From: Candidatus Omnitrophota bacterium
GTDB taxonomy: Bacteria > Omnitrophota > Gorgyraeia > Zapsychrales > Fredricksoniimonadaceae
DNA length: 64,000 bases
Direction of reading: 5' to 3'
Assembly: GCA_013287965.1 (NCBI GenBank)
Contig: JABDCU010000006.1
Span: 2,216-66,215, forward strand
In this document: piece by piece, positions 1 through 44,969 of the stretch
How the letters are laid out: the number at the start of each line of letters is the position of its first letter
How positions within the stretch are numbered: position 1 is the first letter of the stretch
Notes under the pieces: generated by a model
Databases searched by the model: none
Told to the model about the DNA's origin: nothing
The model's input: the letters and a program-made list of their open reading frames with translations, nothing else
Made by a program: the position numbers and the translations under genes

Positions 1-3000
1 TCACAGCGAGCTTGATTTATCCGGAGGACGAAATTGGCAAGAAATTTTGGAAACGCATTTACGAAGAAGCAGACAAGAAATTCGGCACAACCAATATTCC
101 TGTGAACACATTTAACAAGGTCTGGATCGTCCCCGAAAAAGCAGTTGTCTACGAAAACGCCAAAGCCGGCACAGCCTATGTGGTGGAAGCAAAATTAAAA
201 GTCATGCTTGAAGAAGACTATTTGTCTCTCTCTCACAATGTCATTCCCGCGCAAGCGGGAATCCACAACAAGAACGACATCAACGCCCTTGGCTCTCAAA
301 TTGTCCGTGAGATTGTCATTCCAGAATTGACCAAAGAAGTCAACTGCGGCCGCAATTTCGCCCAACTCCGCCAAGTTTACAACAGCCTCATCTTGGCCGC
401 CTGGTATAAAAAGAAAATCAAAGACAGTATCCTGGTTCAAGTGTATGACGATAGAAATAAAATCCAAGGCCTTGTCATTCCCGCGAAAGCGGGAATCCAC
501 AACAAGAACGACGTAGAACACATCTATCAACAATACCTAAAAGCCTTCAAAAAAGGCGTCTACAATTACATCAAAGAAGACCAAGACCCTTTGACCCAAC
601 AAACCATCCCAAGAAAATATTTTTCCGGTGGATTGAGAATGGTTGTCAATATACAGACCATGAGGGATTTACCGAGCTTTGCTATGTTACATTCAAACGA
701 TGGATATAGAGTGACAATGGATTTGGCAATGACAACCACTCCCGATACCAGAAGCCTTGTGCATCGTGTTCAGACGGCGGATGTTTATCCGGACATGGAG
801 CGAACAAATTTTATGTTTAAGTACGGACTGAAATTTGAACGCGCGGACCCCAAAGAGATCAGCAACATGCAGAATATGATCAAAAATCCGCTTACGGTTA
901 AAATAGATATTTACCGCCGTCAAGCTGCTGTCGGCCAATTGATCCACTTAGGGACAACGGGGCGTAGAGAATTAGATGGATTGCACGCAGCAGCCAGGTC
1001 TTGGAGTCATGCCCATGCCTGGCTGACTGGAAAAGATAGCGAACACCCGCAAGGCATGCTTGTTTCTTTGATAAACACAGGCAAGGTTAGCGTAGAAAAA
1101 TGGCAGCAGGAAGCCCAGCGCGTTCATAAAAAACAACAGGAAGAAATGCTTCGCAGGAAAGGAAATGAGAAAGAAAAAGAACCTCCTCCTGAAGAAACCG
1201 CTTATTTGGCCCTTGAAGCTGTCTATAATTTTTCTTCTTTATTTGATGGATTGATTAAAAGGCTCGAGGGCTTCAATGACCCCTTACTGCGTGAAATGGC
1301 TGAAGAATTAAACTCATTGAGGCAGGGGTTTTCTTCTCCGGAAGGGTTCTTGGATATTGTCCGCAGGAATGATCAGGAACAATTGGCCGCGATCCATCAG
1401 AAGGCTGATGTCATCGCAGGTAATTTATTGGATCTCGGGGCGCTGTTGTGTTTTGCTGACTACGCGCAAGAAAGAAAGTATGCTCAGGTCAGCTTTGAGG
1501 AAGGCCAGCCTGTTTATTATGAACAAGGAGAGCTTTTTACAGATACTGACGAGAATCAAACAAAGAATGGTAGCCCGGAGGACAGCCTTGTCACGGTCTT
1601 GACAGGCAGTAATATGTCCGGTAAATCACATTATTTAGAACAAAATTTTTACATTCAGCTTTTAGGGCAGGCCTTTGGCTGGGCACCGGTGCAAAAAGGG
1701 AATTTACGGATTTATAAATACATCGCCTATTTAGACCGGCCGCAGGGGGAATATGATTTAAGTTCCTGGGGAAAAGAAGTAACAAATTGGCTTCTTCCGG
1801 AACACCGCATCGGCCAAGACGCCATTTTCTTTGTGGACGAAGGATTTTCCACGACTTCTCCGGAAGACCAGGCCAAATTCCTGAAGGCCTTAAATTCTTT
1901 ACATCAATTGGCCATGAGCCGGGGCGTGCGTTTGATGCTTGCCACTCATAATGAGGAGTATATCAGTGTTAGCGGGAAGGACCGGCAAAAGGTGAAACTG
2001 TACCATTTGGGCGTAGAGGTAAAAAAAGATAAAATTAAATTTACGTATAAACTTAAAAGGGGCAGGGCAGATTCCAACGCCTTCGTTGTAGCACAGGTAT
2101 TGAATTTTCCGAAGCGTGTTTTAGACCGGGCCAAACGTTATGCCCGCGGGCAAGCCCAGCCGGTAAATAATATTGCCCGAAAGGAATTAATCCCTATTCA
2201 AGCATATTCACCTGCTGAACGGGAGGCTGAGAAAAATAAAAAAGGGGGATTTTTGGGATTTTTTCCAAATGATAGCGTATTGCAAATCGTTCCTGCCAAG
2301 GATTCTTGGGACAGGGGCGGTATCGGATGGCGCTATCTATTTAAGGAATATAACACGGTGGGAAAACCATGGAGTCGGCTTAATTCGCATGATTCAAAAG
2401 AGATCTTTCAGCACGATCCTGTTTTTAATGTTTGGAGCCAGGACCCGGATTTTGACGAGGACAGTTCTCCGATGGCAAGGCAGGTGGATTATGGCAAGTT
2501 GACAGGGCAAAAACACCACAGTTACCCTATGCAGAGGATCCACAGGCTTCTTATGGAAGCGTCGGCTCGCGATCCCAAAGAAATTTTAGAACGCCAAAGA
2601 ATGTTTGCTGCCCTTAAAGGATTGGAAAGCACTGATTTTATCAGCAGGCCTTTGGAAAAAGTAGAAGACTTTATGCGCGCGTTGGCCCCCTATGAAGGAG
2701 AGGAAACCTATGATGATGCGCGTTTTAACCTGCGCTTCTTGGAATCATCTGCTGAGATATTCAAACATATAAGTCATCGTAGTACGACGAAAGATCTTAA
2801 GGAAGCTGTGGAATTTTATCTTGGTGTTTTACGGATGAATCTACGGCTTGCCGGCCAAACAGAGAAGGGCTTAGGGGTTGAGGAAGAAATTTCCAAGATT
2901 AAGGAAGTTTTAAGCTTGCAAGAAAAGCTTGATACCTTAGAGCAAGGCAGTCCACGGCATAGCGGGGTAGAGTTCGAGGATGAAGTTTATCAAAAATGGT

Positions 3001-6000
3001 ACAAGGATATTTATGAGCCCAATTTTGACAGGATTTTAGAAAGATTAAGCGAATTAAAAGGCGCGTCGTTAGAATTTTTTGAAACCAAGATAACTGACAA
3101 TACTGAACTTATTGAACAATTTATCCAATCCATTAACACCAAGGTCATGGCTCAAGTACCTGCTTTTTCCGTTTATGATCCCAAGGTATGGGATATCCTG
3201 CGTCAGGAGGTTAATAATTTATATCCTTATGCGTATGAACAAATACAGGCATATTATGGTGGCGATGCTTTCCGAGGTATTGTGCGTTTAAAAAGTCTTT
3301 TGAGTGAGGAAGACGTTGTCAGGCAATTACTGGATGCCATGCGTACGGTAGATTCAGTGCATATGCATCAATGGAGCAATTATTTCGAAGAGATCTTGAA
3401 ATATTCGCTTGGGGCCGTGCGCACAGGCATGGATTATGTCCGGCAATCTGAAGAAAATAGAAAGAAAATACGTGAGCAGGCTTATTGGAATTATCACAAT
3501 TTTGATGAGTTTGAAAAACTGCAAACTATTTTAAATATTGCTTATGTGATCAAATATCAGGACTGGCAGCCGGTGGAATTAACGGACAAAATGCAGATCG
3601 ATATAAAAGGCGCCTGGAACCTGAATAGAAACAAACAGGAACAAGTTCCTTTGAATATGAAAATGGGGGACAATGAACTCCTGCGCATTTATTCCGGCTC
3701 CACGATGTCCGGTAAAACATTCGCGGAAAAAACACTGATATGGCTATCTTTGGCCGGAATGGCCACTGGTTTTGTGCCGGCACAGCGCGCAAAGCTGCCG
3801 GTTTTTGCCCATGTTTTATACCTGGACCGTATTGCAGAGAAACAATTTCGCCATTTGAGTTCTTTTGGCCAGGAAATCACCAACGAGAACGAATTTTTGG
3901 AAAAAGCGGCGGTGCCTGGAGTCGTGCTTGCCGTTGCTGATGAGATCGGGTCAACCACATCGCCGCGGTATCAGGAAGCATGGTCCTATGGTATTTCTGA
4001 GGAAATGCTTGAGGCGGGTAATTTCATGGTCCTCTCATCGCACAATCATCAATTCATTGAAGCCTTTTCCCGCAATAATAAAGAGAGGGTAGGGGTCTAT
4101 AATTTCAAAACCACTGTTGACAAGCAAGCGAATGTGGTTTTTAAACATAAGATCCAAAGAGGGCATGAAGCCAGCAACAGCCTTAGGGTCGCAAAAACCT
4201 TAGGCCTTAAACGGCTGACGGAAATGGTGGAACAGGACAACGCCATGCTCACCACCAGCCGACAAAAGGGCATTGCTTTCCCAAAAAGGCCTTCCGGCGT
4301 AGAAAATAAAATTTGGAATTTAGTACCTAATATCATTATGGTCCATATGATTGATTCGCCTAAATTATTGGATGGTTTGGAAAAGATCGTTCCAAGATTT
4401 AAAAAGCAGTTTATTTTGACATCTCCCCAGTTTCCTAAACCAGCTTTTTTAGGAAAAATTTTTTCCATCGGGAGTTCCTGGGGGGAATTTTCTCCTAAAT
4501 TTTATGAAAATTCTGTTTTTGTTGGCGGCCACATGATGGATTGCTTAGGTAAGTCTGTAGCAGATTTTTCAAAGGCAGCTTTTAAAGCAGGCAGGAGAAA
4601 GGTGACAGTATATTTGTTGGCACCATATGTTTGGACCAATTGGTCAGATAATACTCTTGAGGGTTTTCTACGAGATATGGATTCAAAAGGCGAATCAGTT
4701 AAAATGCTCAACCCATGGACATTTTTCTATAAAAAAAGTTATTTAGACATCATTTTTCGAAAACTTTTGACTGACAATAGGGTTGGTCAGCTGGCTTATT
4801 TGGATAAAGAATTTTTAAATTCATCAACGGTCAAGGTACGGGTCAATGGCGAAGAAAAAGTCATTTATAGCCAAGGCACAACACACACGTTAATTATTGA
4901 TATAGTCAGGGCCAACGACCCTCGATTGAAAATGGATAACTCAATGCTCACCGCCGGTCAGAAGAAATATATAGACGGCGGTTTTGAAAAGGAGATCGGC
5001 GTGCCGTGGGATGGGAAATATGGTTTATCAAAGTGGGCAAAGTCTGTGATTGAAGATCTTGAACCCGCAGAATTACAGGCAATCGCACAGGCAGCCGGGC
5101 CAAAGGCGGCAAAACAGGTGTTTAAGTTCGGGTTCGATACATTGAAAATAGAAAAGGTGTTTACTGCAAAGGACAAAGGATATGGGCCGGGATTGGTGGC
5201 CATGGCAGAGGCGGTTAAAGACAAGACAGGGTTTTTATTGGAAGTTGAATTACCTGGGGCGAAACGAGTAGTAGGCGCGCAGTTTATGGGATACTGGCCT
5301 GGCTTGGTCAGGATTGTACAGGCAGTTGGTCCCAATGCTGTCAATATCGAACCCTATGATGGTGATCTCGGTAAAAAACTTTTTTTAAAAAATGTATTAA
5401 TTACGCTAAAAGAAACTTTTAAAGACGAGTCTAAAGATGAAATTGAAAATGAGCGTGAGTTTAGGGAGCATTGGTGGCCAGAGCTGGTTGAGATGGCAGA
5501 GGCGCTCGGGCCTGACGCGGGAGATGTTCTTTTATACGCATTGCCGACGGTAAAAGGGGTATTGGGCAAGGACTTTAAAGGATATTATTGGCCGGGCTTG
5601 ATCATCATGGCACAAGCGGCAAAAGCCCATACGGTGCTTTTGTTTAAATTGACATTACCGCCATTAAAGAGATTATATGGTAAGAATTTTAAAGAATATT
5701 GGCCGGTATTGGTGGAGATCGCCCGGGATGCCGGGCCTCTCGTAAAATATGTCTTCCGTGGGCTACAGTTGGAGGGTGTGAAATCCCTCGTTTATGATAA
5801 GGAGAGTTTAAAAGAAATAGGCGGGACAGTACTCGACATATTGCACAAAGCCCAGGAGCGTGGGGGCGATCTTGAAGTTGTATTCCCGAGTTTGGCGAAA
5901 GTTAAGGAGGATCCTCAGACGCATGAGGTGGTGGATCCGGACCATATTTTTCTACCTGAGCAGATAAGTTTGATAAACCGGAACTTGGCGAACCATTACC

Positions 6001-7436
6001 ACGAAAATGCGGCGATGGTGTCCAAGAGCAAGGCTTTTAGCGACCGGGCGATGACCAAAGTGGTCAATGGCCATGGGCAGGAAGATCCACTTGTTGTGGA
6101 AGAAAAGATCAAAAAGTTTAATAACGATTTTATCAAATGGGAAAATGTTTGGGACGAAATGCACCGTCAATGGCTTCATGGAGGGGTCCTGATAGATTTT
6201 TGGTTGGGGAAAATCATGCGCGATCATTTGAATTTTAGGGATTATTCGCCTGAAGATTTGGGAGGAGGGGGACGGAGTTCTCCGATACCGTCCAATAAGG
6301 GCGTAATAATGTGGTATGCGTCTAACTCGAAATATCCTTCAGGGATGGTGCTTACTAAAGAGAATTTTATGCGTATGATGCTGGATTTACTTGAACGGGA
6401 CCAGCGCGCAGCAAGGATCTTGATGTGGCAGCTTATTAAAGCTAGCGATGATACAATTGGCCAAGAAGCCATGCACCGCATTGGTCAAGCAAAGGATGAA
6501 GTGGTTAGTCAATATCGGGTGGAAAGACTGGTCCGGTTGCTCCAAAAAGAAAAGATCAACAGGGCATCGTTTCATTTAATGGAGGATATTAAAGAAGTTT
6601 TTGGCAGTGTGACTGATTTTTATGCTTATGACAAAGGTTTTGATCCAGAAATTATTAATAAAACAAGAGGTGATATTGCGTTGAAATGGTCGCATCGGGG
6701 TGCAGATGAGATGCGATGGGGAATTTTAAAACCAGGCCACTTTAAGGCGCTGATCGCTGATCTATTGCAAAAAGATCCTCTGATGGCCAGAAAATTAATT
6801 ATCTCTATGTTAAAAATAAGCCCTAAGAAAGAACAGAAAGCCGTTAATGCCAGGGTCCGAAGAATAGGAGGACAGAAAAAACTGGATGAGATCAATGCCC
6901 TTGCTGATAAATTAATGCAGATGCCATATTTTACAATTTCGCCCCAGCTTGCAGAAGACATGTCACGGGTTTTAAGAAGATTTGGCTGGTATGCCCGGCA
7001 GGGAAAGATTTATATACCTGATAACTCTAAATTAGAGATAAAAGAAGCAGATGAAGTTCAATTCTTATATCATCTTCCAAAAGAAAAAGTCACTAAGGGG
7101 TTTAAGGCGGCCAGAAACAGGGTCCTTTACATATTGGCTGATTTATTGGAAAAGAATAAGTCTGTTTTTAATCAACTTGAACGTGAGGCGGCCAACGCTG
7201 CGATGTCGGTGGAGAATAGAGGTGGTATTGATTTCACCGCTAATAAGACACCGTTGGAGGTGAAAGTGGATTCCCGCTTGCGCGGGAATGACAATGGGAT
7301 ACAGTTTCACCTTGATCCTGCACAGCTTGCACAACTGCAAAATGCGCCTGGTTTTGTGCCGGTGATCATCAGTATTCAGCCCCTGGCTGGCGGACAGGCC
7401 GGGATAACGGATTTGCGCCATTTTTTGGAAACATAA
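1..7436 (+). CDS. Giant multidomain protein, 5' end outside window (2,477 codons visible): conserved N-module, two MutS-type ATPase modules, helical repeats, conserved C-module
   Basis: One uninterrupted frame from the window edge (codon phase starts at nt 3; T-A-S-L-I-Y equals aa 156-161 of the paralog at 38261) to the TAA at 7434-7436. The TTG at 12 in the ORF track is therefore not the real start. Domain evidence is given in the sub-features. Confidence 0.85.
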   Translation, partial: TASLIYPEDEIGKKFWKRIYEEADKKFGTTNIPVNTFNKVWIVPEKAVVYENAKAGTAYVVEAKLKVMLEEDYLSLSHNVIPAQAGIHNKNDINALGSQIVREIVIPELTKEVNCGRNFAQLRQVYNSLILAAWYKKKIKDSILVQVYDDRNKIQGLVIPAKAGIHNKNDVEHIYQQYLKAFKKGVYNYIKEDQDPLTQQTIPRKYFSGGLRMVVNIQTMRDLPSFAMLHSNDGYRVTMDLAMTTTPDTRSLVHRVQTADVYPDMERTNFMFKYGLKFERADPKEISNMQNMIKNPLTVKIDIYRRQAAVGQLIHLGTTGRRELDGLHAAARSWSHAHAWLTGKDSEHPQGMLVSLINTGKVSVEKWQQEAQRVHKKQQEEMLRRKGNEKEKEPPPEETAYLALEAVYNFSSLFDGLIKRLEGFNDPLLREMAEELNSLRQGFSSPEGFLDIVRRNDQEQLAAIHQKADVIAGNLLDLGALLCFADYAQERKYAQVSFEEGQPVYYEQGELFTDTDENQTKNGSPEDSLVTVLTGSNMSGKSHYLEQNFYIQLLGQAFGWAPVQKGNLRIYKYIAYLDRPQGEYDLSSWGKEVTNWLLPEHRIGQDAIFFVDEGFSTTSPEDQAKFLKALNSLHQLAMSRGVRLMLATHNEEYISVSGKDRQKVKLYHLGVEVKKDKIKFTYKLKRGRADSNAFVVAQVLNFPKRVLDRAKRYARGQAQPVNNIARKELIPIQAYSPAEREAEKNKKGGFLGFFPNDSVLQIVPAKDSWDRGGIGWRYLFKEYNTVGKPWSRLNSHDSKEIFQHDPVFNVWSQDPDFDEDSSPMARQVDYGKLTGQKHHSYPMQRIHRLLMEASARDPKEILERQRMFAALKGLESTDFISRPLEKVEDFMRALAPYEGEETYDDARFNLRFLESSAEIFKHISHRSTTKDLKEAVEFYLGVLRMNLRLAGQTEKGLGVEEEISKIKEVLSLQEKLDTLEQGSPRHSGVEFEDEVYQKWYKDIYEPNFDRILERLSELKGASLEFFETKITDNTELIEQFIQSINTKVMAQVPAFSVYDPKVWDILRQEVNNLYPYAYEQIQAYYGGDAFRGIVRLKSLLSEEDVVRQLLDAMRTVDSVHMHQWSNYFEEILKYSLGAVRTGMDYVRQSEENRKKIREQAYWNYHNFDEFEKLQTILNIAYVIKYQDWQPVELTDKMQIDIKGAWNLNRNKQEQVPLNMKMGDNELLRIYSGSTMSGKTFAEKTLIWLSLAGMATGFVPAQRAKLPVFAHVLYLDRIAEKQFRHLSSFGQEITNENEFLEKAAVPGVVLAVADEIGSTTSPRYQEAWSYGISEEMLEAGNFMVLSSHNHQFIEAFSRNNKERVGVYNFKTTVDKQANVVFKHKIQRGHEASNSLRVAKTLGLKRLTEMVEQDNAMLTTSRQKGIAFPKRPSGVENKIWNLVPNIIMVHMIDSPKLLDGLEKIVPRFKKQFILTSPQFPKPAFLGKIFSIGSSWGEFSPKFYENSVFVGGHMMDCLGKSVADFSKAAFKAGRRKVTVYLLAPYVWTNWSDNTLEGFLRDMDSKGESVKMLNPWTFFYKKSYLDIIFRKLLTDNRVGQLAYLDKEFLNSSTVKVRVNGEEKVIYSQGTTHTLIIDIVRANDPRLKMDNSMLTAGQKKYIDGGFEKEIGVPWDGKYGLSKWAKSVIEDLEPAELQAIAQAAGPKAAKQVFKFGFDTLKIEKVFTAKDKGYGPGLVAMAEAVKDKTGFLLEVELPGAKRVVGAQFMGYWPGLVRIVQAVGPNAVNIEPYDGDLGKKLFLKNVLITLKETFKDESKDEIENEREFREHWWPELVEMAEALGPDAGDVLLYALPTVKGVLGKDFKGYYWPGLIIMAQAAKAHTVLLFKLTLPPLKRLYGKNFKEYWPVLVEIARDAGPLVKYVFRGLQLEGVKSLVYDKESLKEIGGTVLDILHKAQERGGDLEVVFPSLAKVKEDPQTHEVVDPDHIFLPEQISLINRNLANHYHENAAMVSKSKAFSDRAMTKVVNGHGQEDPLVVEEKIKKFNNDFIKWENVWDEMHRQWLHGGVLIDFWLGKIMRDHLNFRDYSPEDLGGGGRSSPIPSNKGVIMWYASNSKYPSGMVLTKENFMRMMLDLLERDQRAARILMWQLIKASDDTIGQEAMHRIGQAKDEVVSQYRVERLVRLLQKEKINRASFHLMEDIKEVFGSVTDFYAYDKGFDPEIINKTRGDIALKWSHRGADEMRWGILKPGHFKALIADLLQKDPLMARKLIISMLKISPKKEQKAVNARVRRIGGQKKLDEINALADKLMQMPYFTISPQLAEDMSRVLRRFGWYARQGKIYIPDNSKLEIKEADEVQFLYHLPKEKVTKGFKAARNRVLYILADLLEKNKSVFNQLEREAANAAMSVENRGGIDFTANKTPLEVKVDSRLRGNDNGIQFHLDPAQLAQLQNAPGFVPVIISIQPLAGGQAGITDLRHFLET
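240..278 (+). repeat. In-frame palindromic hairpin element, copy A (27-nt core + 12-nt tail), translated VIPAQAGIH-NKND
   Basis: Sequence is gtcATTCCCGCgcaaGCGGGAATccac: an 8-bp perfect stem with a GCAA (GNRA) loop, 27 nt = 9 codons. It is 38/39 identical to 474-512, and the core is 27/27 identical to the reverse complement of 7266-7292. Confidence 0.9.
474..512 (+). repeat. In-frame palindromic hairpin element, copy B, translated VIPAKAGIH-NKND
   Basis: Sequence is gtcATTCCCGCgaaaGCGGGAATccac + aacaagaacgac, with a GAAA loop. The core is 27/27 identical to the reverse complement of 43211-43237. The paralog has no element at this site (GYKNSIN instead). Confidence 0.9.
1404..2147 (+). other. 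MutS-type ATPase module 1 (domain V-like, with preceding core-like helices)
   Basis: Motifs appear in the canonical MutS domain V order: Walker A VLTGSNMSGKSHYLEQ (GSNMSGKS at 1605-1628), Walker B FFVDEGFSTTSPEDQ, LMLATHNEE, then FTYKLKRGRADSNAFVVAQVLNFP. Confidence 0.7.
3534..4226 (+). other. MutS-type ATPase module 2
   Basis: Second copy of the same motif series: IYSGSTMSGKTFAEK (GSTMSGKT at 3696-3719), LAVADEIGSTTSPRYQ, VLSSHNHQF, FKHKIQRGHEASNSLRVAKTLGL. Confidence 0.7.
5058..5816 (+). repeat. About six degenerate ~37-45-aa helical repeats (HEAT/ARM-like) inside the giant ORF
   Basis: Recurring unit [FY]xG-[YW]WP[GEV]L[VI]xxAxAxGP...LP..K...GK.F. Examples: YGPGLVAMAEAV, YWPGLVRIVQAVGPNA, WWPELVEMAEALGPDAG, YYWPGLIIMAQAAKAH, YWPVLVEIARDAGPLV. 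Confidence 0.6.
7221..7436 (+). repeat. Conserved C-terminal module (partner 43163-43360)
   Basis: GGIDF..(hairpin insert)..GIQFHLDPAQLAQLQNAPGFVPVIISIQPL aligns with GGIDL...GIQFHLDPAMLAQLQNAPGFVPVIINIQPL in the second giant ORF. Confidence 0.85.
7266..7292 (-). repeat. In-frame hairpin element in opposite orientation, translated VDSRLRGND
   Basis: gtgGATTCCCGCttgcGCGGGAATgac is the exact reverse complement of 240-266. Confidence 0.9.
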
Positions 7437-10329: not shown

Positions 10330-10400
10330 TGCCCGGTGGTGTAATGGTAGCACCCGAGAATTTGGATCTCGTTGTTCAGGTTCGAGTCCTGGCTGGGCAA
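10330..10400 (+). tRNA. tRNA-Gln (anticodon TTG)
   Basis: Hand-folded cloverleaf. Acceptor TGCCCGG/CTGGGCA (U1-A72), D arm GTGT/GCAC, anticodon stem CGAGA/TCTCG with loop ATTTGGA, T arm TCAGG-TTCGAGT-CCTGG. No encoded CCA. Confidence 0.85.
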
Positions 10401-38260: not shown

Positions 38261-41200
38261 TTGCATACTTTATATAGTATGGAGAGGACCCCAAGATTCC
38301 CTGTTTCTTGCTTTTCAAAGCGGCTTTATAGGTCGTGGGGTTTTTTTGTCGTTTTAACCGCCTTTTTGGCTAATTCCTTTGGGCCTCTGCCTTTGGCTCA
38401 AGCTCAAGAGTTTCGTCTGCCTGCGCCCGGAGTAATGGTCCGTTTAAGCCCTGAATTCAATCCGCCAATATTAAAAGGCCTCAAAGTCCATCCTAACAAT
38501 CCTTTCCGTTTCGATTTCATTTTGGACAAAGGTGATTCATCGGTTCCTCTTAAGCCCGAAGCCACCAAACTGATCAAATATTTCCTCTCCAGCTTAACCA
38601 TCCCTGAAAAAGATTTATGGGTTAATCTTTCGCCATATGAGAAAAATAGGATCATCCCCCAAAGTTTCGGTTTAACCGAAATGGGCAGGGACCTTTTGGC
38701 TGAAGACTATATGCTCAAGCAGATCACTGCAAGTTTAATTTATCCTGAGGATGAGATAGGTAAGAAATTCTGGAAACGCATTTATGAAGAAGCCGCGAAG
38801 AAATTTGGTACAACCAACATCCCGGTCAATACGTTCAATAAGGTCTGGATAGTGCCTGAAAAAGCCGTTGTCTACGAAAACTCCAAGGCCGGCACAGCTT
38901 ATGTGGTGGAAGCAAAACTTAAGGTCATGCTTGAGGAAGATTATTTGTCTCTTTCCCATCATGTCATTCCTGCGAAAGGTCGTATTGACCGACACTCGCA
39001 GTTGCTCGCGGGAATCCAGAACACGAGCGCCCTTGGCTCTCAAATCGTCCGCGAGATAGTCATCCCCGAACTGACCAAAGAGATCAACCAAAACAAAAAC
39101 TTCGCCCAGCTCCGCCAGGTCTATAATTCGCTTATTTTAGCCACCTGGTACAAAAAGAAGATCAAAGACAGTATTCTGGCTCAAGTGTATGAAGACAAAA
39201 AGAAAGTAGCAGGTGTAGGATACAAGAATTCCATCAACATTGAAGCCATCTACCAGCGCTACCTCCAAGCCTTCAAAAAAGGCGCCTATAACTATATCAA
39301 AGAAGAACAAGACCCGTTGACCCAGCAAGTCATTCCCAGGAAATATTTTTCAGGAGGGGCTGCTTTTAATAATAAAGCTATGTTAGTAGCGATGAAATTT
39401 ACCACCCAGATGCCAAAGAGTCAGACAGGATTACAGGAAATTGATATCAATTTGGCAATGGCACACCAGGAAGGATTTATCAGGACCCGCCATGATCATC
39501 CATCGTGGGAAAATCAGGCCCAGCAATTCCATGATCTTTATGGGGAAAGCCACGCCAAGGAAGCCTATCTTCTATATGGGACCAACTATGATATTAGGCA
39601 AGGCGATGTACGGATTCTTGCTTCTATACTTAATGCCCATCATATATTTCCTAAACCCGGCGGGACCCTGGTTGTTGCCGGGTTTGGAAGTCGTCTTAGC
39701 GAGTTGCCAATGCTTCAGAAACTTTTCCAAGCCAGCCGGGTGCTCGGAGTGGATTGGATGCAGTCCGTTATTGATCGGGCGGATATTTATCTTAGGCAAC
39801 AGGACGTCTCTCCTGACGTTTTCGGTCTTTACCACGAAGATGTAAGAGATATGCATTCATTCATTAAGGATGATTCCGTTGATGTTTTTTTTGCACAATT
39901 GATCACAGAACATGACTATTCACGTGAATCTGAAAAACTTAATGAGATCCTGCGCATACTCAAGCCTGGAGGCGTTGCTTTTCTTGGTGGATGCGGGGCT
40001 GATTTTGCTAAAGATATTCCTCCCGGTTTAGAGGTGAAAGTCATCAATTCAGGAAGAAGTATTATCTTGTATAAAGCAGGGAAAAGAGGAGCAGAAAGTC
40101 AGGCAATGTCGGCCCCGGTCCCTGCCCAAAATAAGGTGGCGAAATCACCGCAAGCCCGCAAGGCGCAGGCCAAGCCTGGTGATAAGGCGATGGTTGAATT
40201 AATTGATAAGCGTTTAAAAAGGGCTGCCGAAGCAGAACAAGTAGCCGTGCTGAATTATCATCCTGACATTCCCGGAACGCGGGAAGCCCTTATAGCAATG
40301 TTAGGGTTTTTAGGGCAATCTTATTATGAAGTGACAAAGGAGAATTTAGCCACAACGCTTAAGAGAGGTGATGGCAGGTGGTTGAATGTTGTTGTTGCTC
40401 CTGATGATTTGCCGTTTGCAAGTGATGAACAAAGGGAAGCTTTTTTGAACCTGATCCACGTACAAGCCGGGAAAGAGGTCAGTTTGGAAACCATTGGTGA
40501 TGTGTCCAGGTATCAAGATAAAGATTTGACTGTATTTTCTAGAAAGCTTAGGGATAATTTGACTGATTTATATAGTATTGAGGGGTTTAGGTTCATGGTG
40601 CGGAAATTAATTCAAAAAAGAGGAGATAAACGTGATGACGCACATCTAAAATTGGCGGTTTTTGATATAGATCATTTAGGATCAATTAATTCGATTTGGG
40701 GCCATGATCAGGGTAACAAAGTCGTAGTAGGTACGTCCGGGGTTTTCGAGTCTGTCGTTAGGCCTGATGAAATTATTGCCCATTTACACGGTGGTGATGA
40801 ATTTGCCATATTAACGGAAGGGTCAGAAGATCGTCCTCAACAGATCCTCAAGGCAATCAGGGAAAAGATGCATCAGTTTCTTCCTTATACCAGGGAAAAA
40901 GTGATTGAACAGCTCAAGTCAAAGAGGCTTGAAAATGATAAAGATGATGCTTATGATGGAATGATATATCAGTTGGCTTTACAGAATCCCCAAAAGGGTA
41001 AGAACCCTGCTGTTATTGAGAGTGTCTTAAAACGAAAGTTTAAGAGTTTAAAACAAATTGTCGTAGAACTGGAGCAACCGGAATCGCCATATAAATTTGA
41101 AGGACCGCGCCTCACATATAGTATGGGTGTTGTTGATTTTGACGAAAACGAAACAACAAAACTTCCCAGAGATCGTGTTGGGATTAGAAAACTAGTCGAC

Positions 41201-43360
41201 AGTCTTTATGCACAGGCTGACGAGCATTTGCTAGTTGCCAAAAGCAAGGGGAGGGATCGGGTTTGGGAAGAACCTTATAGAGATTCAGCCATGGTGATGA
41301 ATTCATCGCAAGCCAGCGACAGGGCCATGGCCCAAGAGCATGAAGCGACGGCCCAGGAGCTTGGATGGTTTTTTATGAACCATGATCTTTTTCTCACATT
41401 TCCGGTTTTTTCTAACCACGCCAAGACCAATAAGGTCAAACGAGGAATATATTTGCCCCATGATGAAGTCAAGAAATTACTGGGGATCGTTAAAAAATCC
41501 AGCCTTTCAAAATATGAGGGTTCGGGCACAGTTTTGGATGCCAATAATCGAAACATTTGGGAAGAAATCTCCGTCCCAGCAAATAAAGAAGAGGGTATTG
41601 CCCCTTCAGCAGATGAAATAGAAGTGCGCTTAAAACCTGATATTATTATCACAGAAAGTGATTTTCGGGGCATGGTAAAAAATGGCGGTGACTTTGACCA
41701 TATTGCGGCCATTGTCAAACAGGTACAGGATAGAAAATTGAAAGCAGTTACGAGGGGGCCGGGGATGGTAGATTTTTTTTGGAAGCCGGGGCAGGAGTAT
41801 AAATGGACAATGATCACAAAAGAACCGGTCGACCAGGTGTCCGTTGTCCCATCAGGAGAATATGATCAGATCAATTTTGAGGATTTTGTAACAGTAGGAG
41901 ACAAGAAAAATTATAAAATTTGGGTTGAAGGGGGATCAGTAATGTTCCAGGTTTATAATAAAGATGGCAGTGTTCCCCTAAAAAATATCGTAAAGGCGAA
42001 GGTAATGAAGCTAAAATCAGCTGAAGGGACCTTTTTTGATATCAACGATAAAGAGAGCGTCTGGGAACAGGGCGATTCCCCGGAAGAGATGCATTTAAAG
42101 CCCCATTTTTTTATAGATGCGAAATTGAAAGATGAGAGTAGGAAATTGGCAAGGATGCCGGGAAAAGAGCATTATGATAGTTTGGAAGACGCTGCCCGGA
42201 AAATCTTAAAAGGCAATGATGTAATAGAATTTTTGAAGATCTTGAAAGAAGCCCAAGAAGAGATGGAAGTAAAAAGACTTCCCTGGCAGGGGTTTTATGT
42301 TGAAGAAAAAGCCTTCAGGTTCCATGTTCAGGAAAGGGAGAAGGGTAAATATACGTTATATTTTCGAAGCCTTAAAGCATCTCCCACTTTACGGTGGAAA
42401 GCTGTTCCGGTTGATCCGTTGATCTTGGGGGCCTTTCAGAATGCGGGGGATAAAAAGAAATCGTTTGGATTTGTTGATACAATAAAAGGATTGGCTGTGT
42501 TGATGGCGGGGGACGCTCCTGGACTAAGGGATGGGTTTCAGGTGTTGACGGAAGAGCTTTCTAACAAGGAGGCGCGGGAAATAGCCAATGATACACAGGA
42601 AGGGCTCAGGTTTTTCTTGCAAAAGTCAGTCATTAAGGCATGGGGCGCCATTATAGAACATACCATGAATAGAAATTATGTTTATGATTCTGCTAAACAC
42701 CATCCGGATATTATGGCGGCTGCCTATGGGAAAGATGAGAAAGGCCATCCCATTATCATTGTAGTCTATACGGGCGCAGGGAATCTGTATGAGCTCAGGC
42801 ACAAAACACACTCACATTCTGAGGTCCTCACGCTTTTGAACATTCAGGAAAATCGTTTAGGTATAAAAGTGTCATTAGTAAAAGATTTGAGGGAAGGAGA
42901 TTCTGTAATTATGATGTCCGGCAGGGGCGAACTCGAAGAAGGTGTTGCTTTTCATGATGATGACGATGACACCCCGGAAGGAATTGCCCAGACGTATCTG
43001 CCCAGCGATATAAGGCAAATTAAGAAAAATCCTGGCATACTGGTTTTTCGTATTGTCAATGCCGCTATGTCTTCCGCAAATATTTTAGCCGGCAGGAATA
43101 TTAAAACAAGGCCAAGTGCCCGGGTGGGTTTAAAAGGTCAAGTAAGGAGACAGTTGAAAAACGGCGGTATTGATCTGACCCCTGCGCGTATGGATTTACA
43201 GACTAAAGTAGTGGATTCCCGCTTTCGCGGGAATGACAAAGGGATTCAGTTTCACCTTGACCCTGCCATGCTGGCCCAACTGCAAAACGCCCCTGGCTTT
43301 GTGCCGGTGATCATCAATATCCAGCCATTAAATGATTTGAAAGCATTCTTGGCTGGCTAA
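38261..43360 (+). CDS. Giant exported multidomain protein (1,699 aa): signal peptide, conserved N-module, methyltransferase-like region, GGDEF domain, ~600 aa unassigned, conserved C-module
   Basis: Single ORF; likely start is ATG 38279 (MERTPRFPVSCFSKRLYRSWGFFVVLTAFLANSFGPLPLAQA/QE, a Sec-type signal). N- and C-modules are paralogous to ORF 1-7436. Confidence 0.9.
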   Translation: MHTLYSMERTPRFPVSCFSKRLYRSWGFFVVLTAFLANSFGPLPLAQAQEFRLPAPGVMVRLSPEFNPPILKGLKVHPNNPFRFDFILDKGDSSVPLKPEATKLIKYFLSSLTIPEKDLWVNLSPYEKNRIIPQSFGLTEMGRDLLAEDYMLKQITASLIYPEDEIGKKFWKRIYEEAAKKFGTTNIPVNTFNKVWIVPEKAVVYENSKAGTAYVVEAKLKVMLEEDYLSLSHHVIPAKGRIDRHSQLLAGIQNTSALGSQIVREIVIPELTKEINQNKNFAQLRQVYNSLILATWYKKKIKDSILAQVYEDKKKVAGVGYKNSINIEAIYQRYLQAFKKGAYNYIKEEQDPLTQQVIPRKYFSGGAAFNNKAMLVAMKFTTQMPKSQTGLQEIDINLAMAHQEGFIRTRHDHPSWENQAQQFHDLYGESHAKEAYLLYGTNYDIRQGDVRILASILNAHHIFPKPGGTLVVAGFGSRLSELPMLQKLFQASRVLGVDWMQSVIDRADIYLRQQDVSPDVFGLYHEDVRDMHSFIKDDSVDVFFAQLITEHDYSRESEKLNEILRILKPGGVAFLGGCGADFAKDIPPGLEVKVINSGRSIILYKAGKRGAESQAMSAPVPAQNKVAKSPQARKAQAKPGDKAMVELIDKRLKRAAEAEQVAVLNYHPDIPGTREALIAMLGFLGQSYYEVTKENLATTLKRGDGRWLNVVVAPDDLPFASDEQREAFLNLIHVQAGKEVSLETIGDVSRYQDKDLTVFSRKLRDNLTDLYSIEGFRFMVRKLIQKRGDKRDDAHLKLAVFDIDHLGSINSIWGHDQGNKVVVGTSGVFESVVRPDEIIAHLHGGDEFAILTEGSEDRPQQILKAIREKMHQFLPYTREKVIEQLKSKRLENDKDDAYDGMIYQLALQNPQKGKNPAVIESVLKRKFKSLKQIVVELEQPESPYKFEGPRLTYSMGVVDFDENETTKLPRDRVGIRKLVDSLYAQADEHLLVAKSKGRDRVWEEPYRDSAMVMNSSQASDRAMAQEHEATAQELGWFFMNHDLFLTFPVFSNHAKTNKVKRGIYLPHDEVKKLLGIVKKSSLSKYEGSGTVLDANNRNIWEEISVPANKEEGIAPSADEIEVRLKPDIIITESDFRGMVKNGGDFDHIAAIVKQVQDRKLKAVTRGPGMVDFFWKPGQEYKWTMITKEPVDQVSVVPSGEYDQINFEDFVTVGDKKNYKIWVEGGSVMFQVYNKDGSVPLKNIVKAKVMKLKSAEGTFFDINDKESVWEQGDSPEEMHLKPHFFIDAKLKDESRKLARMPGKEHYDSLEDAARKILKGNDVIEFLKILKEAQEEMEVKRLPWQGFYVEEKAFRFHVQEREKGKYTLYFRSLKASPTLRWKAVPVDPLILGAFQNAGDKKKSFGFVDTIKGLAVLMAGDAPGLRDGFQVLTEELSNKEAREIANDTQEGLRFFLQKSVIKAWGAIIEHTMNRNYVYDSAKHHPDIMAAAYGKDEKGHPIIIVVYTGAGNLYELRHKTHSHSEVLTLLNIQENRLGIKVSLVKDLREGDSVIMMSGRGELEEGVAFHDDDDDTPEGIAQTYLPSDIRQIKKNPGILVFRIVNAAMSSANILAGRNIKTRPSARVGLKGQVRRQLKNGGIDLTPARMDLQTKVVDSRFRGNDKGIQFHLDPAMLAQLQNAPGFVPVIINIQPLNDLKAFLAG
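38963..39019 (+). repeat. Expanded (57-nt) in-frame version of the hairpin element, translated VIPAKGRIDRHSQLLAGIQ
   Basis: Arms gtcATTCCTGCgaaa...GCGGGAATccag match the 27-nt element. 30 extra nt (ggtcgtattgaccgacactcgcagttgctc) sit at the loop. It occupies the same site as copy A (240-266) in the paralog. Confidence 0.8.
39644..40015 (+). other. Class I SAM-dependent methyltransferase-like region
   Basis: GGTLVVAGFGSRLSE (divergent motif I), VLGVDWMQSVIDRA, DVFFAQLITEH, LRILKPGGVAFLGG. Confidence 0.45.
40568..41269 (+). other. GGDEF (diguanylate cyclase-type) domain
   Basis: LAVFDIDHLGSINSIWGHDQGNKVV, HGGDEFAIL (GGDEF at 40790-40804), TYSMGVVDF, ADEHLLVAKSKGRDRV. Confidence 0.75.
43211..43237 (-). 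repeat. In-frame hairpin element, opposite orientation, translated VDSRFRGND
   Basis: gtgGATTCCCGCtttcGCGGGAATgac is the exact reverse complement of 474-500 and occupies the same site in the C-module as 7266-7292. Confidence 0.9.
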
Positions 43361-44895: not shown

Positions 44896-44969
44896 GCGGG
44901 GTTCATACAGTGGTAGTATTTCAGCTTCCCAAGCTGACTGCGCGGGTTCGATTCCCGCACCCCGCTCCA
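44896..44969 (+). tRNA. tRNA-Gly (anticodon CCC), CCA encoded
   Basis: Hand-folded. Acceptor GCGGGGT/ACCCCGC, D arm ATAC/GTAT, anticodon stem TCAGC/GCTGA with loop TTCCCAA, T arm GCGGG-TTCGATT-CCCGC, discriminator T, then CCA. Confidence 0.9.

Follow-up and report, generated by a model that had tools for sequence, protein, structure and literature searches.

The repetitive extragenic palindrome (REP) family CGTC-1 is defined by a CGTC or TGTC tag (CCTC is also allowed), an 8-bp stem whose first bases are AT, a loop of 4 nt and a tail fitting CCA (PMC3733652). It has been equated with dRS3 of Neisseria and with RPE-6, one of the Rickettsia palindromic elements (RPEs), in Rickettsia conorii (Di Nocera, De Gregorio and Rocco 2013, BMC Genomics 14:522; PMC3733652). 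The table of intragenic REPs in the same paper lists in-frame CGTC-1 copies that encode VIPAKAGI, SFPRKRES, CHSRESGNP and DSRFRGND in proteins of R. conorii, Chlorobium chlorochromatii and Micavibrio. In Neisseria, the classical dRS3 motif ATTCCC-N8-GGGAAT is included in the Neisseria Transformation Sequence (NTS), CGTCATTCCCGCGMAVGCGGGAATCYRG, which is bound and cleaved by SsnA, a GIY-YIG nuclease of about 95 aa that leaves the RNA form unbound; a degenerate Ssn-related motif (SRM) adjoins small GIY-YIG nucleases of single-stranded DNA (ssDNA) across bacteria (Nat Commun 2025; PMC11893778). RPEs in general are found in frame inside open reading frames (ORFs), in solvent-exposed regions, with different element groups at the same position of orthologues and with an enrichment of ATGAC/GTCAT termini (PMC3767692). 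Here we analyzed a 64-kb stretch of a Candidatus Omnitrophota genome (contig JABDCU010000006.1; hereafter the window, to which all window counts are limited), in which short hairpins lie in two giant genes, each with a conserved N-module at its start and a C-module at its end. These hairpins are CGTC-1 REPs, the element otherwise known as dRS3/NTS in Neisseria, as RPE-6 in Rickettsia and as the SRM.

Four intact copies and one disrupted copy were identified in the window, all of them in the two giant genes (Table 1). The pattern ATTCCCGC-N4-GCGGGAAT matched exactly at 243-262, 477-496, 7270-7289 and 43215-43234, and no further copy was found in the window even with three mismatches tolerated. 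Four matches were obtained in 0 of 100 dinucleotide-preserving shuffles of the window, with none expected. The exact 27-mer of the element is GTCATTCCCGCGMAAGCGGGAATCCAC and the corresponding 28-mer is TGTCATTCCCGCGAAAGCGGGAATCCAC; with their flanks, all four intact copies read TGTCATTCCCGCG[C/A]AAGCGGGAATCCAC. Each has a perfect 8-bp stem closed by a 4-nt loop, GCAA or GAAA on one strand and TTGC or TTTC on the other. Predicted ssDNA fold energies lay between -8.9 and -10.4 kcal/mol; relative to shuffled sequences, the z-scores were -3.8 to -5.2. All four copies are in frame within uninterrupted ORFs. The two copies in the N-module of gene 1 are in the forward orientation, and the C-module of each giant gene has one copy that is reverse-complemented, reading VDSR(L/F)RGND as had been recognized from the sequence.

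An earlier, sequence-only reading of this DNA had described the two hairpins in the N-module of gene 1 as near-identical 27-nt inserts, and the comparison bore out their likeness: 240-278 and 474-512 are identical at 38 of 39 nt, the sole difference being a loop base (c versus a). The same comparison showed that the proposed length was too short, as the unit common to the two copies is 39 nt and ends in a 12-nt tail, AACAAGAAYGAC, that accompanies the element at both N-module sites in other genomes too. The N-module of gene 2 does lack a copy at the second site, where it reads GYKNSIN. What had been overlooked is that its first site holds the disrupted copy, mismatched at one stem position and split between loop and right arm by an in-frame insert of 30 nt. 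The element had also been held to be free of stops in both orientations; five of its six frames are open, and one reverse frame reads GFPLSRE and then stops.

Every feature of the CGTC-1 definition was found in the window copies. In the four intact copies and the disrupted one alike, a TGTC tag lies directly 5' of the stem; the stem is ATTCCCGC / GCGGGAAT with A-T at its first and second positions, the loop is 4 nt, and each of the four intact copies has CCAC after the stem. In addition, head-to-head dimers were seen in two related loci (L176 and L198). The Neisseria motifs gave a consistent result: the dRS3 core is present, the four copies agree with the NTS consensus at 26 of 28 positions, the two exceptions being the first and the last base, and the SRM pattern had four exact matches in the window versus 0.3 in shuffles. 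A full-text literature search with the DNA string of the element led to the Neisseria papers, and the element peptides (IPAFAGMT, DSRFRGND and others) were not found in the main texts of the literature. The sequence-only reading had likened the behavior of the hairpins to that of RPEs while regarding their sequence as distinct. The behavior is indeed RPE-like, the copies being in frame in an open ORF and missing from most homologues. The second part of the claim fell, because CGTC-1 is RPE-6 and its in-frame copies, including the VIPAKAGI and DSRFRGND inserts, had already been tabulated; the window element is thus a member of an RPE family and not an analogue of different sequence. The element and its in-frame behavior were therefore already known; the novelty lies in the phylum and the protein family that host it and in how strongly the copies gather in a few loops.

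The element is widely distributed. A scan of a one-genome-per-species collection found the exact 27-mer in at least 120 loci of many, distantly related bacterial groups. Hosts among the loci listed were Rhodocyclales, Alphaproteobacteria and Rickettsiales (Proteobacteria), Acidobacteriota, Dehalococcoidia (Chloroflexota), Binatia, several groups of the candidate phyla radiation (CPR), Planctomycetota, Gemmatimonadota, Spirochaetota and Omnitrophota. The 27-mer was read there in every open frame and mostly in short ORFs, as expected of intergenic repeats. A 25-nt core of the element also occurred in 108 viral or prophage contig stretches (IMG/VR, L201-L280), and such contigs are possible vehicles for spread across phyla.

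In five loci (L031, L032, L034, L039 and L116), a GIY-YIG gene or its remnant lies from a few tens of bp to about 170 bp from the 27-mer. In locus L002 of an Omnitrophota metagenome-assembled genome (MAG), a 97-aa GIY-YIG gene (Pfam PF01541) has CGTC-1-like hairpins on both sides and reproduces the NTS-ssnA-NTS arrangement of Neisseria. A search with the L002 protein returned at least 7980 matches, without taxonomic resolution for Omnitrophota, and no sequence relative of it was found in the PDB. The hairpins that flank this gene (L002 6690-7260 and 7551-7640) have longer loops, and each is paired with a second family (GGATCCCCGA..TCGGGGATGAC). Three tandem hairpin-pair units stand upstream of the gene, and one hairpin is broken by an insert of about 90 nt.

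The N- and C-modules were compared with their homologues. The N-module has 1259 database homologues, and those with names are from Omnitrophota; neither Pfam nor NCBIfam has a model for the N-module or the C-module. The two giant genes are members of a large Omnitrophota family that is without annotation and in which highly variable cargo lies between the conserved modules, an N-module (about 370 aa, signal-like at its start) and a C-module of about 65 aa with the pattern GGIDLT..I[KQ]FHLDPAMLAQLQNAPGFVPVIINIQP. Four linkers were distinguished, three in the N-module (site 0 after FDFILDKGD, site 1 and site 2) and one in the C-module.

Presence of the element in these linkers is polymorphic. 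In an alignment of the best 120 of the 1259 N-module homologues, the element peptide was present in a handful and most members had short, unrelated, non-palindromic linkers. We further assembled 87 N-modules (85 from 80 metagenome loci and two from the window) and 40 C-modules (38 metagenome and two window sequences). A CGTC-1 peptide was found in 6/87 N-modules at site 0, 12/87 at site 1 and 10/87 at site 2, and a reverse copy was found in 4/40 C-modules. Similarity among carriers did not exceed that between carriers and non-carriers, and the nearest neighbors of carriers usually lacked the element; this is a weak test, the N-modules being uniformly about 75% identical. With most of some 200 homologous N-modules free of the element and the carriers unclustered by similarity, the proposal that the hairpins are insertions and not ancestral protein sequence held. 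At site 2, genes 1 and 2 differ by a net 18 nt within a diverged patch. Single-sided stem mutations in L124, L136, L178 and L172 indicated decay without compensatory change, and the stems are still perfect in most copies.

An AlphaFold model of residues 1-216 of gene 1 (mean pLDDT 80) placed the inserts (residues 80-88 and 158-166) in coil or a short turn between helices, with a pLDDT of about 55-61 versus more than 90 in the flanking helices. In this prediction, the inserts would be in a solvent-exposed, non-core part of the protein, consistent with the surface loops that had been anticipated.

The four linkers are hot spots for the element. Across 777 kb of Omnitrophota DNA, the element density per 100 kb was 22 in N-modules, 38 in C-modules and 2.1 elsewhere, a 10-18-fold enrichment in the linkers. 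Perfect stems of at least 8 bp were present in 23%-47% of linkers versus 2-4% of control segments of the same ORFs. Within long Omnitrophota ORFs, the element was read only in the VIPAKAGI frame when forward and only in the DSRFRGND frame when reversed. The same linkers hold other in-frame families, some CGTC-like (VIASEAKQS, VILSEAKDL..ATPQND and SSPNALIGDP) and some GTAG-like (VGAGSKPA..GLEPAPT and VETQ..DAINRVST). At site 2, one of the other REP families is read in two different frames, as VIAS..AKQS and as VSLRG.., and therefore arrived there by independent events. Tandem remnants, head-to-head pairs and nested inserts also occur in the linkers. Such hot-spot behavior has precedent. Further palindromic families were noted in linkers of, for example, L121 (site 1), L148 (site 1), L192 (site 1) and L199 (site 2), and of the homologues P0001, P0015, P0029, P0050 and P0059.

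The insert that splits the disrupted copy, GGTCGTATTGACCGACACTCGCAGTTGCTC (peptide GRIDRHSQLL), was also seen as related copies in L164 (5771-5799), L122 (9759-9787), L184 (4358-4386), L144 (2700-2728), L136 (2422-2450), L191 (371-399) and L195 (3159-3187). Of the eight copies, four lie within the loop or right arm of hairpins of two families, and another two are placed immediately 5' of a hairpin. The insert thus resembles a secondary insertion, or a footprint, that targets REP hairpins.

Table 1. Hairpin copies and host genes in the 64-kb window.
Feature	Position	Strand	Details
CGTC-1 REP / NTS-like copy 1, VIPAQAGIH, linker site 1, gene 1 N-module	239..266	+	TGTC tag, stem ATTCCCGC, loop GCAA, stem GCGGGAAT, tail CCAC; common unit to 278
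CGTC-1 REP copy 2, VIPAKAGIH, linker site 2, gene 1 N-module	473..500	+	Loop GAAA; common unit to 512
CGTC-1 REP copy 3, VDSRLRGND, gene 1 C-module linker	7266..7293	-	Reversed relative to gene
CGTC-1 REP copy 4, VDSRFRGND, gene 2 C-module linker	43211..43238	-	Reversed relative to gene
Disrupted copy 5, VIPAK-GRIDRHSQLL-AGIQ, gene 2 linker site 1	38962..39019	+	Left arm TGTCATTCCTGCGAAA, 30-nt nested insert, right arm GCGGGAATCCAG
Nested 30-nt in-frame mini-element GGTCGTATTGACCGACACTCGCAGTTGCTC, splits copy 5 hairpin	38978..39007	+	8 related copies in Omnitrophota loci
Host gene 1	3..7436	+	5' end cut by window edge; 2477 open codons from base 3; listed ORF 12..7436 = 2474 aa
Gene 1 layout	N-module to ~629; MutS_V cargo; C-module 7221-7433	+	Cargo of MutS_V ATPase domains
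Host gene 2	38261..43360	+	1699 aa; N-module to ~39355; methyltransferase and GGDEF cargo; C-module 43163-43357

Beyond the giant genes, Rfam identified tRNA genes at 10330-10400 and 44896-44966. An Rfam match to SNORD36 at 4690-4759 on the minus strand (E = 0.36) was taken as chance.

Based on these findings, we consider it likely that the window hairpins are passenger copies of the horizontally spread CGTC-1 ssDNA-hairpin REP, lodged in tolerant linkers and then duplicated, recombined and lost among paralogues. At the protein level the inserted peptides are most likely passengers. A small ssDNA-hairpin repeat would spread horizontally through many bacterial groups, and its copies would settle as in-frame segments of 9-13 codons in the poorly structured linkers of the modular giant-protein paralogues. 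They would persist where a linker tolerates extra residues, with a selective filter presumably letting only open, chemically mild frames survive (VIPAKAGI forward and DSRFRGND reverse) and with the surviving inserts presumably close to neutral. Duplication and recombination among the N- and C-module paralogues could then multiply, exchange or remove copies, and point mutation or further nested insertions would bring about their decay. We infer that a copying enzyme takes part; an Ssn-type GIY-YIG nuclease is the known partner of the motif.

Several observations weigh against this account. The window contains no intergenic copy of the element and no other hairpin repeat above chance, so active transposition in this genome is only a possibility and the copies may instead travel with the modules. 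The enrichment in the modules, set against few intergenic copies, is unlike most REP hosts and hints at targeting or function. The single frame per orientation could result from common descent of a few events rather than from selection. No target-site duplication was recognized and no clean empty site could be defined in linkers that are too diverged and often contain remnants of earlier elements. Finally, no GIY-YIG gene was detected in the window by regular expression or by tblastn with a consensus sequence; the same consensus recovered real genes in other loci, and this negative is weak evidence because the window is only 64 kb.

A serious variant, which we nevertheless regard as unlikely, is that a single insertion or a few ancient ones, into an ancestral N-module and C-module, occurred without any ongoing mobility and that the present pattern arose by paralogue duplication, gene conversion between sites and modules, and frequent loss. 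The one frame per orientation of the copies within ORFs would follow from such a history, and the lack of an intergenic copy in the window and the filling of both window paralogues at site 1 and at the same C-module site are in keeping with it. A 39-nt unit nearly identical between copies, with the 12-nt tail recurring at the two sites in other genomes, is likewise what gene conversion would give. This variant has difficulty with carriers that are scattered, not clustered, among the N-modules, with the independent arrivals of a related REP family at site 2, with the many unrelated REP families in the same linkers and with the tandem and nested arrangements. Most stems have moreover stayed perfect although the peptide is dispensable. 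It is a doubtful and rather less likely proposition that the four linkers are preferred landing or recombination sites for several REP families, that hairpins and Ssn-type nucleases drive the diversification or cassette exchange of cargo, and that secondary elements such as the 30-nt GRIDRHSQLL insert target hairpin loops. Hairpins might also have been exapted at the DNA level to bracket the cargo, much as in an NTS-gene-NTS layout, serving as Ssn cleavage or recombination sites that govern the exchange or diversification of cassettes among paralogues, and this we consider improbable. The forward orientation in N-modules and reverse orientation in C-modules, seen in the window, L121 and L136, would suit such a role, as would the strong module enrichment and the findings in Neisseria that an NTS flanking a gene lowers transformation via SsnA and that dRS3-adjacent genes are more variable. 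Yet, depending on the site, 59 to 81 of the 87 N-modules have no hairpin, nor do 36 of the 40 C-modules, and where one is present it lies inside a module: homology of the N-module extends for 43 aa beyond site 2, and that of the C-module starts some 15 aa ahead of the hairpin. Copies also decay without compensatory change. We also considered the hairpins as boundaries of the conserved modules and rejected this, since homology runs well beyond them.

A role in the mRNA, where the GNRA-capped stem would make ribosomes pause, be an RNase target or stabilize very long transcripts, is highly improbable. The forward copies do present a GCAA or GAAA loop on a G+C-rich 8-bp stem, and REPs of other bacteria have often been proposed to act as RNA (PMC3733652). 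The C-module copies, however, would show UUGC or UUUC loops in the mRNA and not GNRA loops, most homologues have no element at all, Rfam holds no family for the window hairpins, and SsnA does not bind the RNA form. The view that VIPAKAGIH and VDSRFRGND are ancestral functional motifs of the protein and that the palindrome is incidental is effectively refuted. The peptides are kept in frame in several genomes, but most homologues are without them at positions that are hypervariable in length and sequence and modeled with low confidence, and the identical 27-mer stands in non-homologous, mostly non-coding contexts of many phyla in all frames.

Together, these results correct the reading of the hairpins from a new class of coding hairpin to the CGTC-1 / dRS3 / NTS / RPE-6 repeat of Neisseria and Rickettsia, and they add Omnitrophota, with a very large family of modular giant proteins that is still unannotated, to the known hosts of protein-coding palindromes. 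Several REP families are, moreover, unusually concentrated in a few loops of these proteins. The family offers a natural system in which to ask whether REP sites reflect targeting or selection, how hairpins spread across phyla and what role Ssn nucleases have beyond Neisseria. For annotation, the element accounts for the recurrence of VIPAKAGIQ, SFPRKRES, DSRFRGND and WIPAFAGMT in hypothetical proteins.

Transposable elements of the miniature inverted-repeat class (MITEs) have terminal inverted repeats and a target-site duplication; no duplication is recognizable here at filled versus empty sites, and a typical MITE is far longer than the window unit. The GTAG-type REPs associated with tyrosine transposases (RAYTs), and the bacterial interspersed mosaic elements (BIMEs), are likewise short hairpin repeats that accumulate as mosaics, and GTAG peptides (VGAGSKPA.. 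and VETQ..) share the linkers; the tag of the window element is, in contrast, of the CGTC type, and no RAYT gene turned up, no search aimed at RAYT having been made. RPE-6, together with RPE-4 and RPE-7, resembles the window element in its in-frame ORF inserts, its exposed locations and the presence of several element groups per position. Annotated RPEs, extended regions included, are 68-192 bp long, against 27-39 nt for the recognizable unit here, and they are hosted by housekeeping genes of an obligate intracellular bacterium, whereas the window element sits in giant modular proteins of a phylum that is free-living or epibiotic. The Neisseria dRS3/NTS and the SRM (PMC11893778) share with the Omnitrophota element the dRS3 core, the near-complete NTS match, the exact SRM and, in an Omnitrophota MAG, a hairpin-flanked GIY-YIG gene; no ssn gene was seen in the window, and the window copies differ in ending in CCAC rather than CYRG, in beginning with T rather than C and in being all coding, while only 2% of NTS in N. 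meningitidis are intragenic. The CGTC-1 REP itself (PMC3733652) is also among the closest known systems. Omnitrophota is outside the five phyla given for it, and its known copies are mainly downstream of genes, whereas those in the window gather in a few linkers of one protein family. The TGTC tag variant, the 8-bp AT stem, the 4-nt loop, the CCA tail and the occurrence as single units and, in related loci, as head-to-head pairs are nonetheless the same, and in-frame intragenic VIPAKAGI and DSRFRGND copies are found in both.

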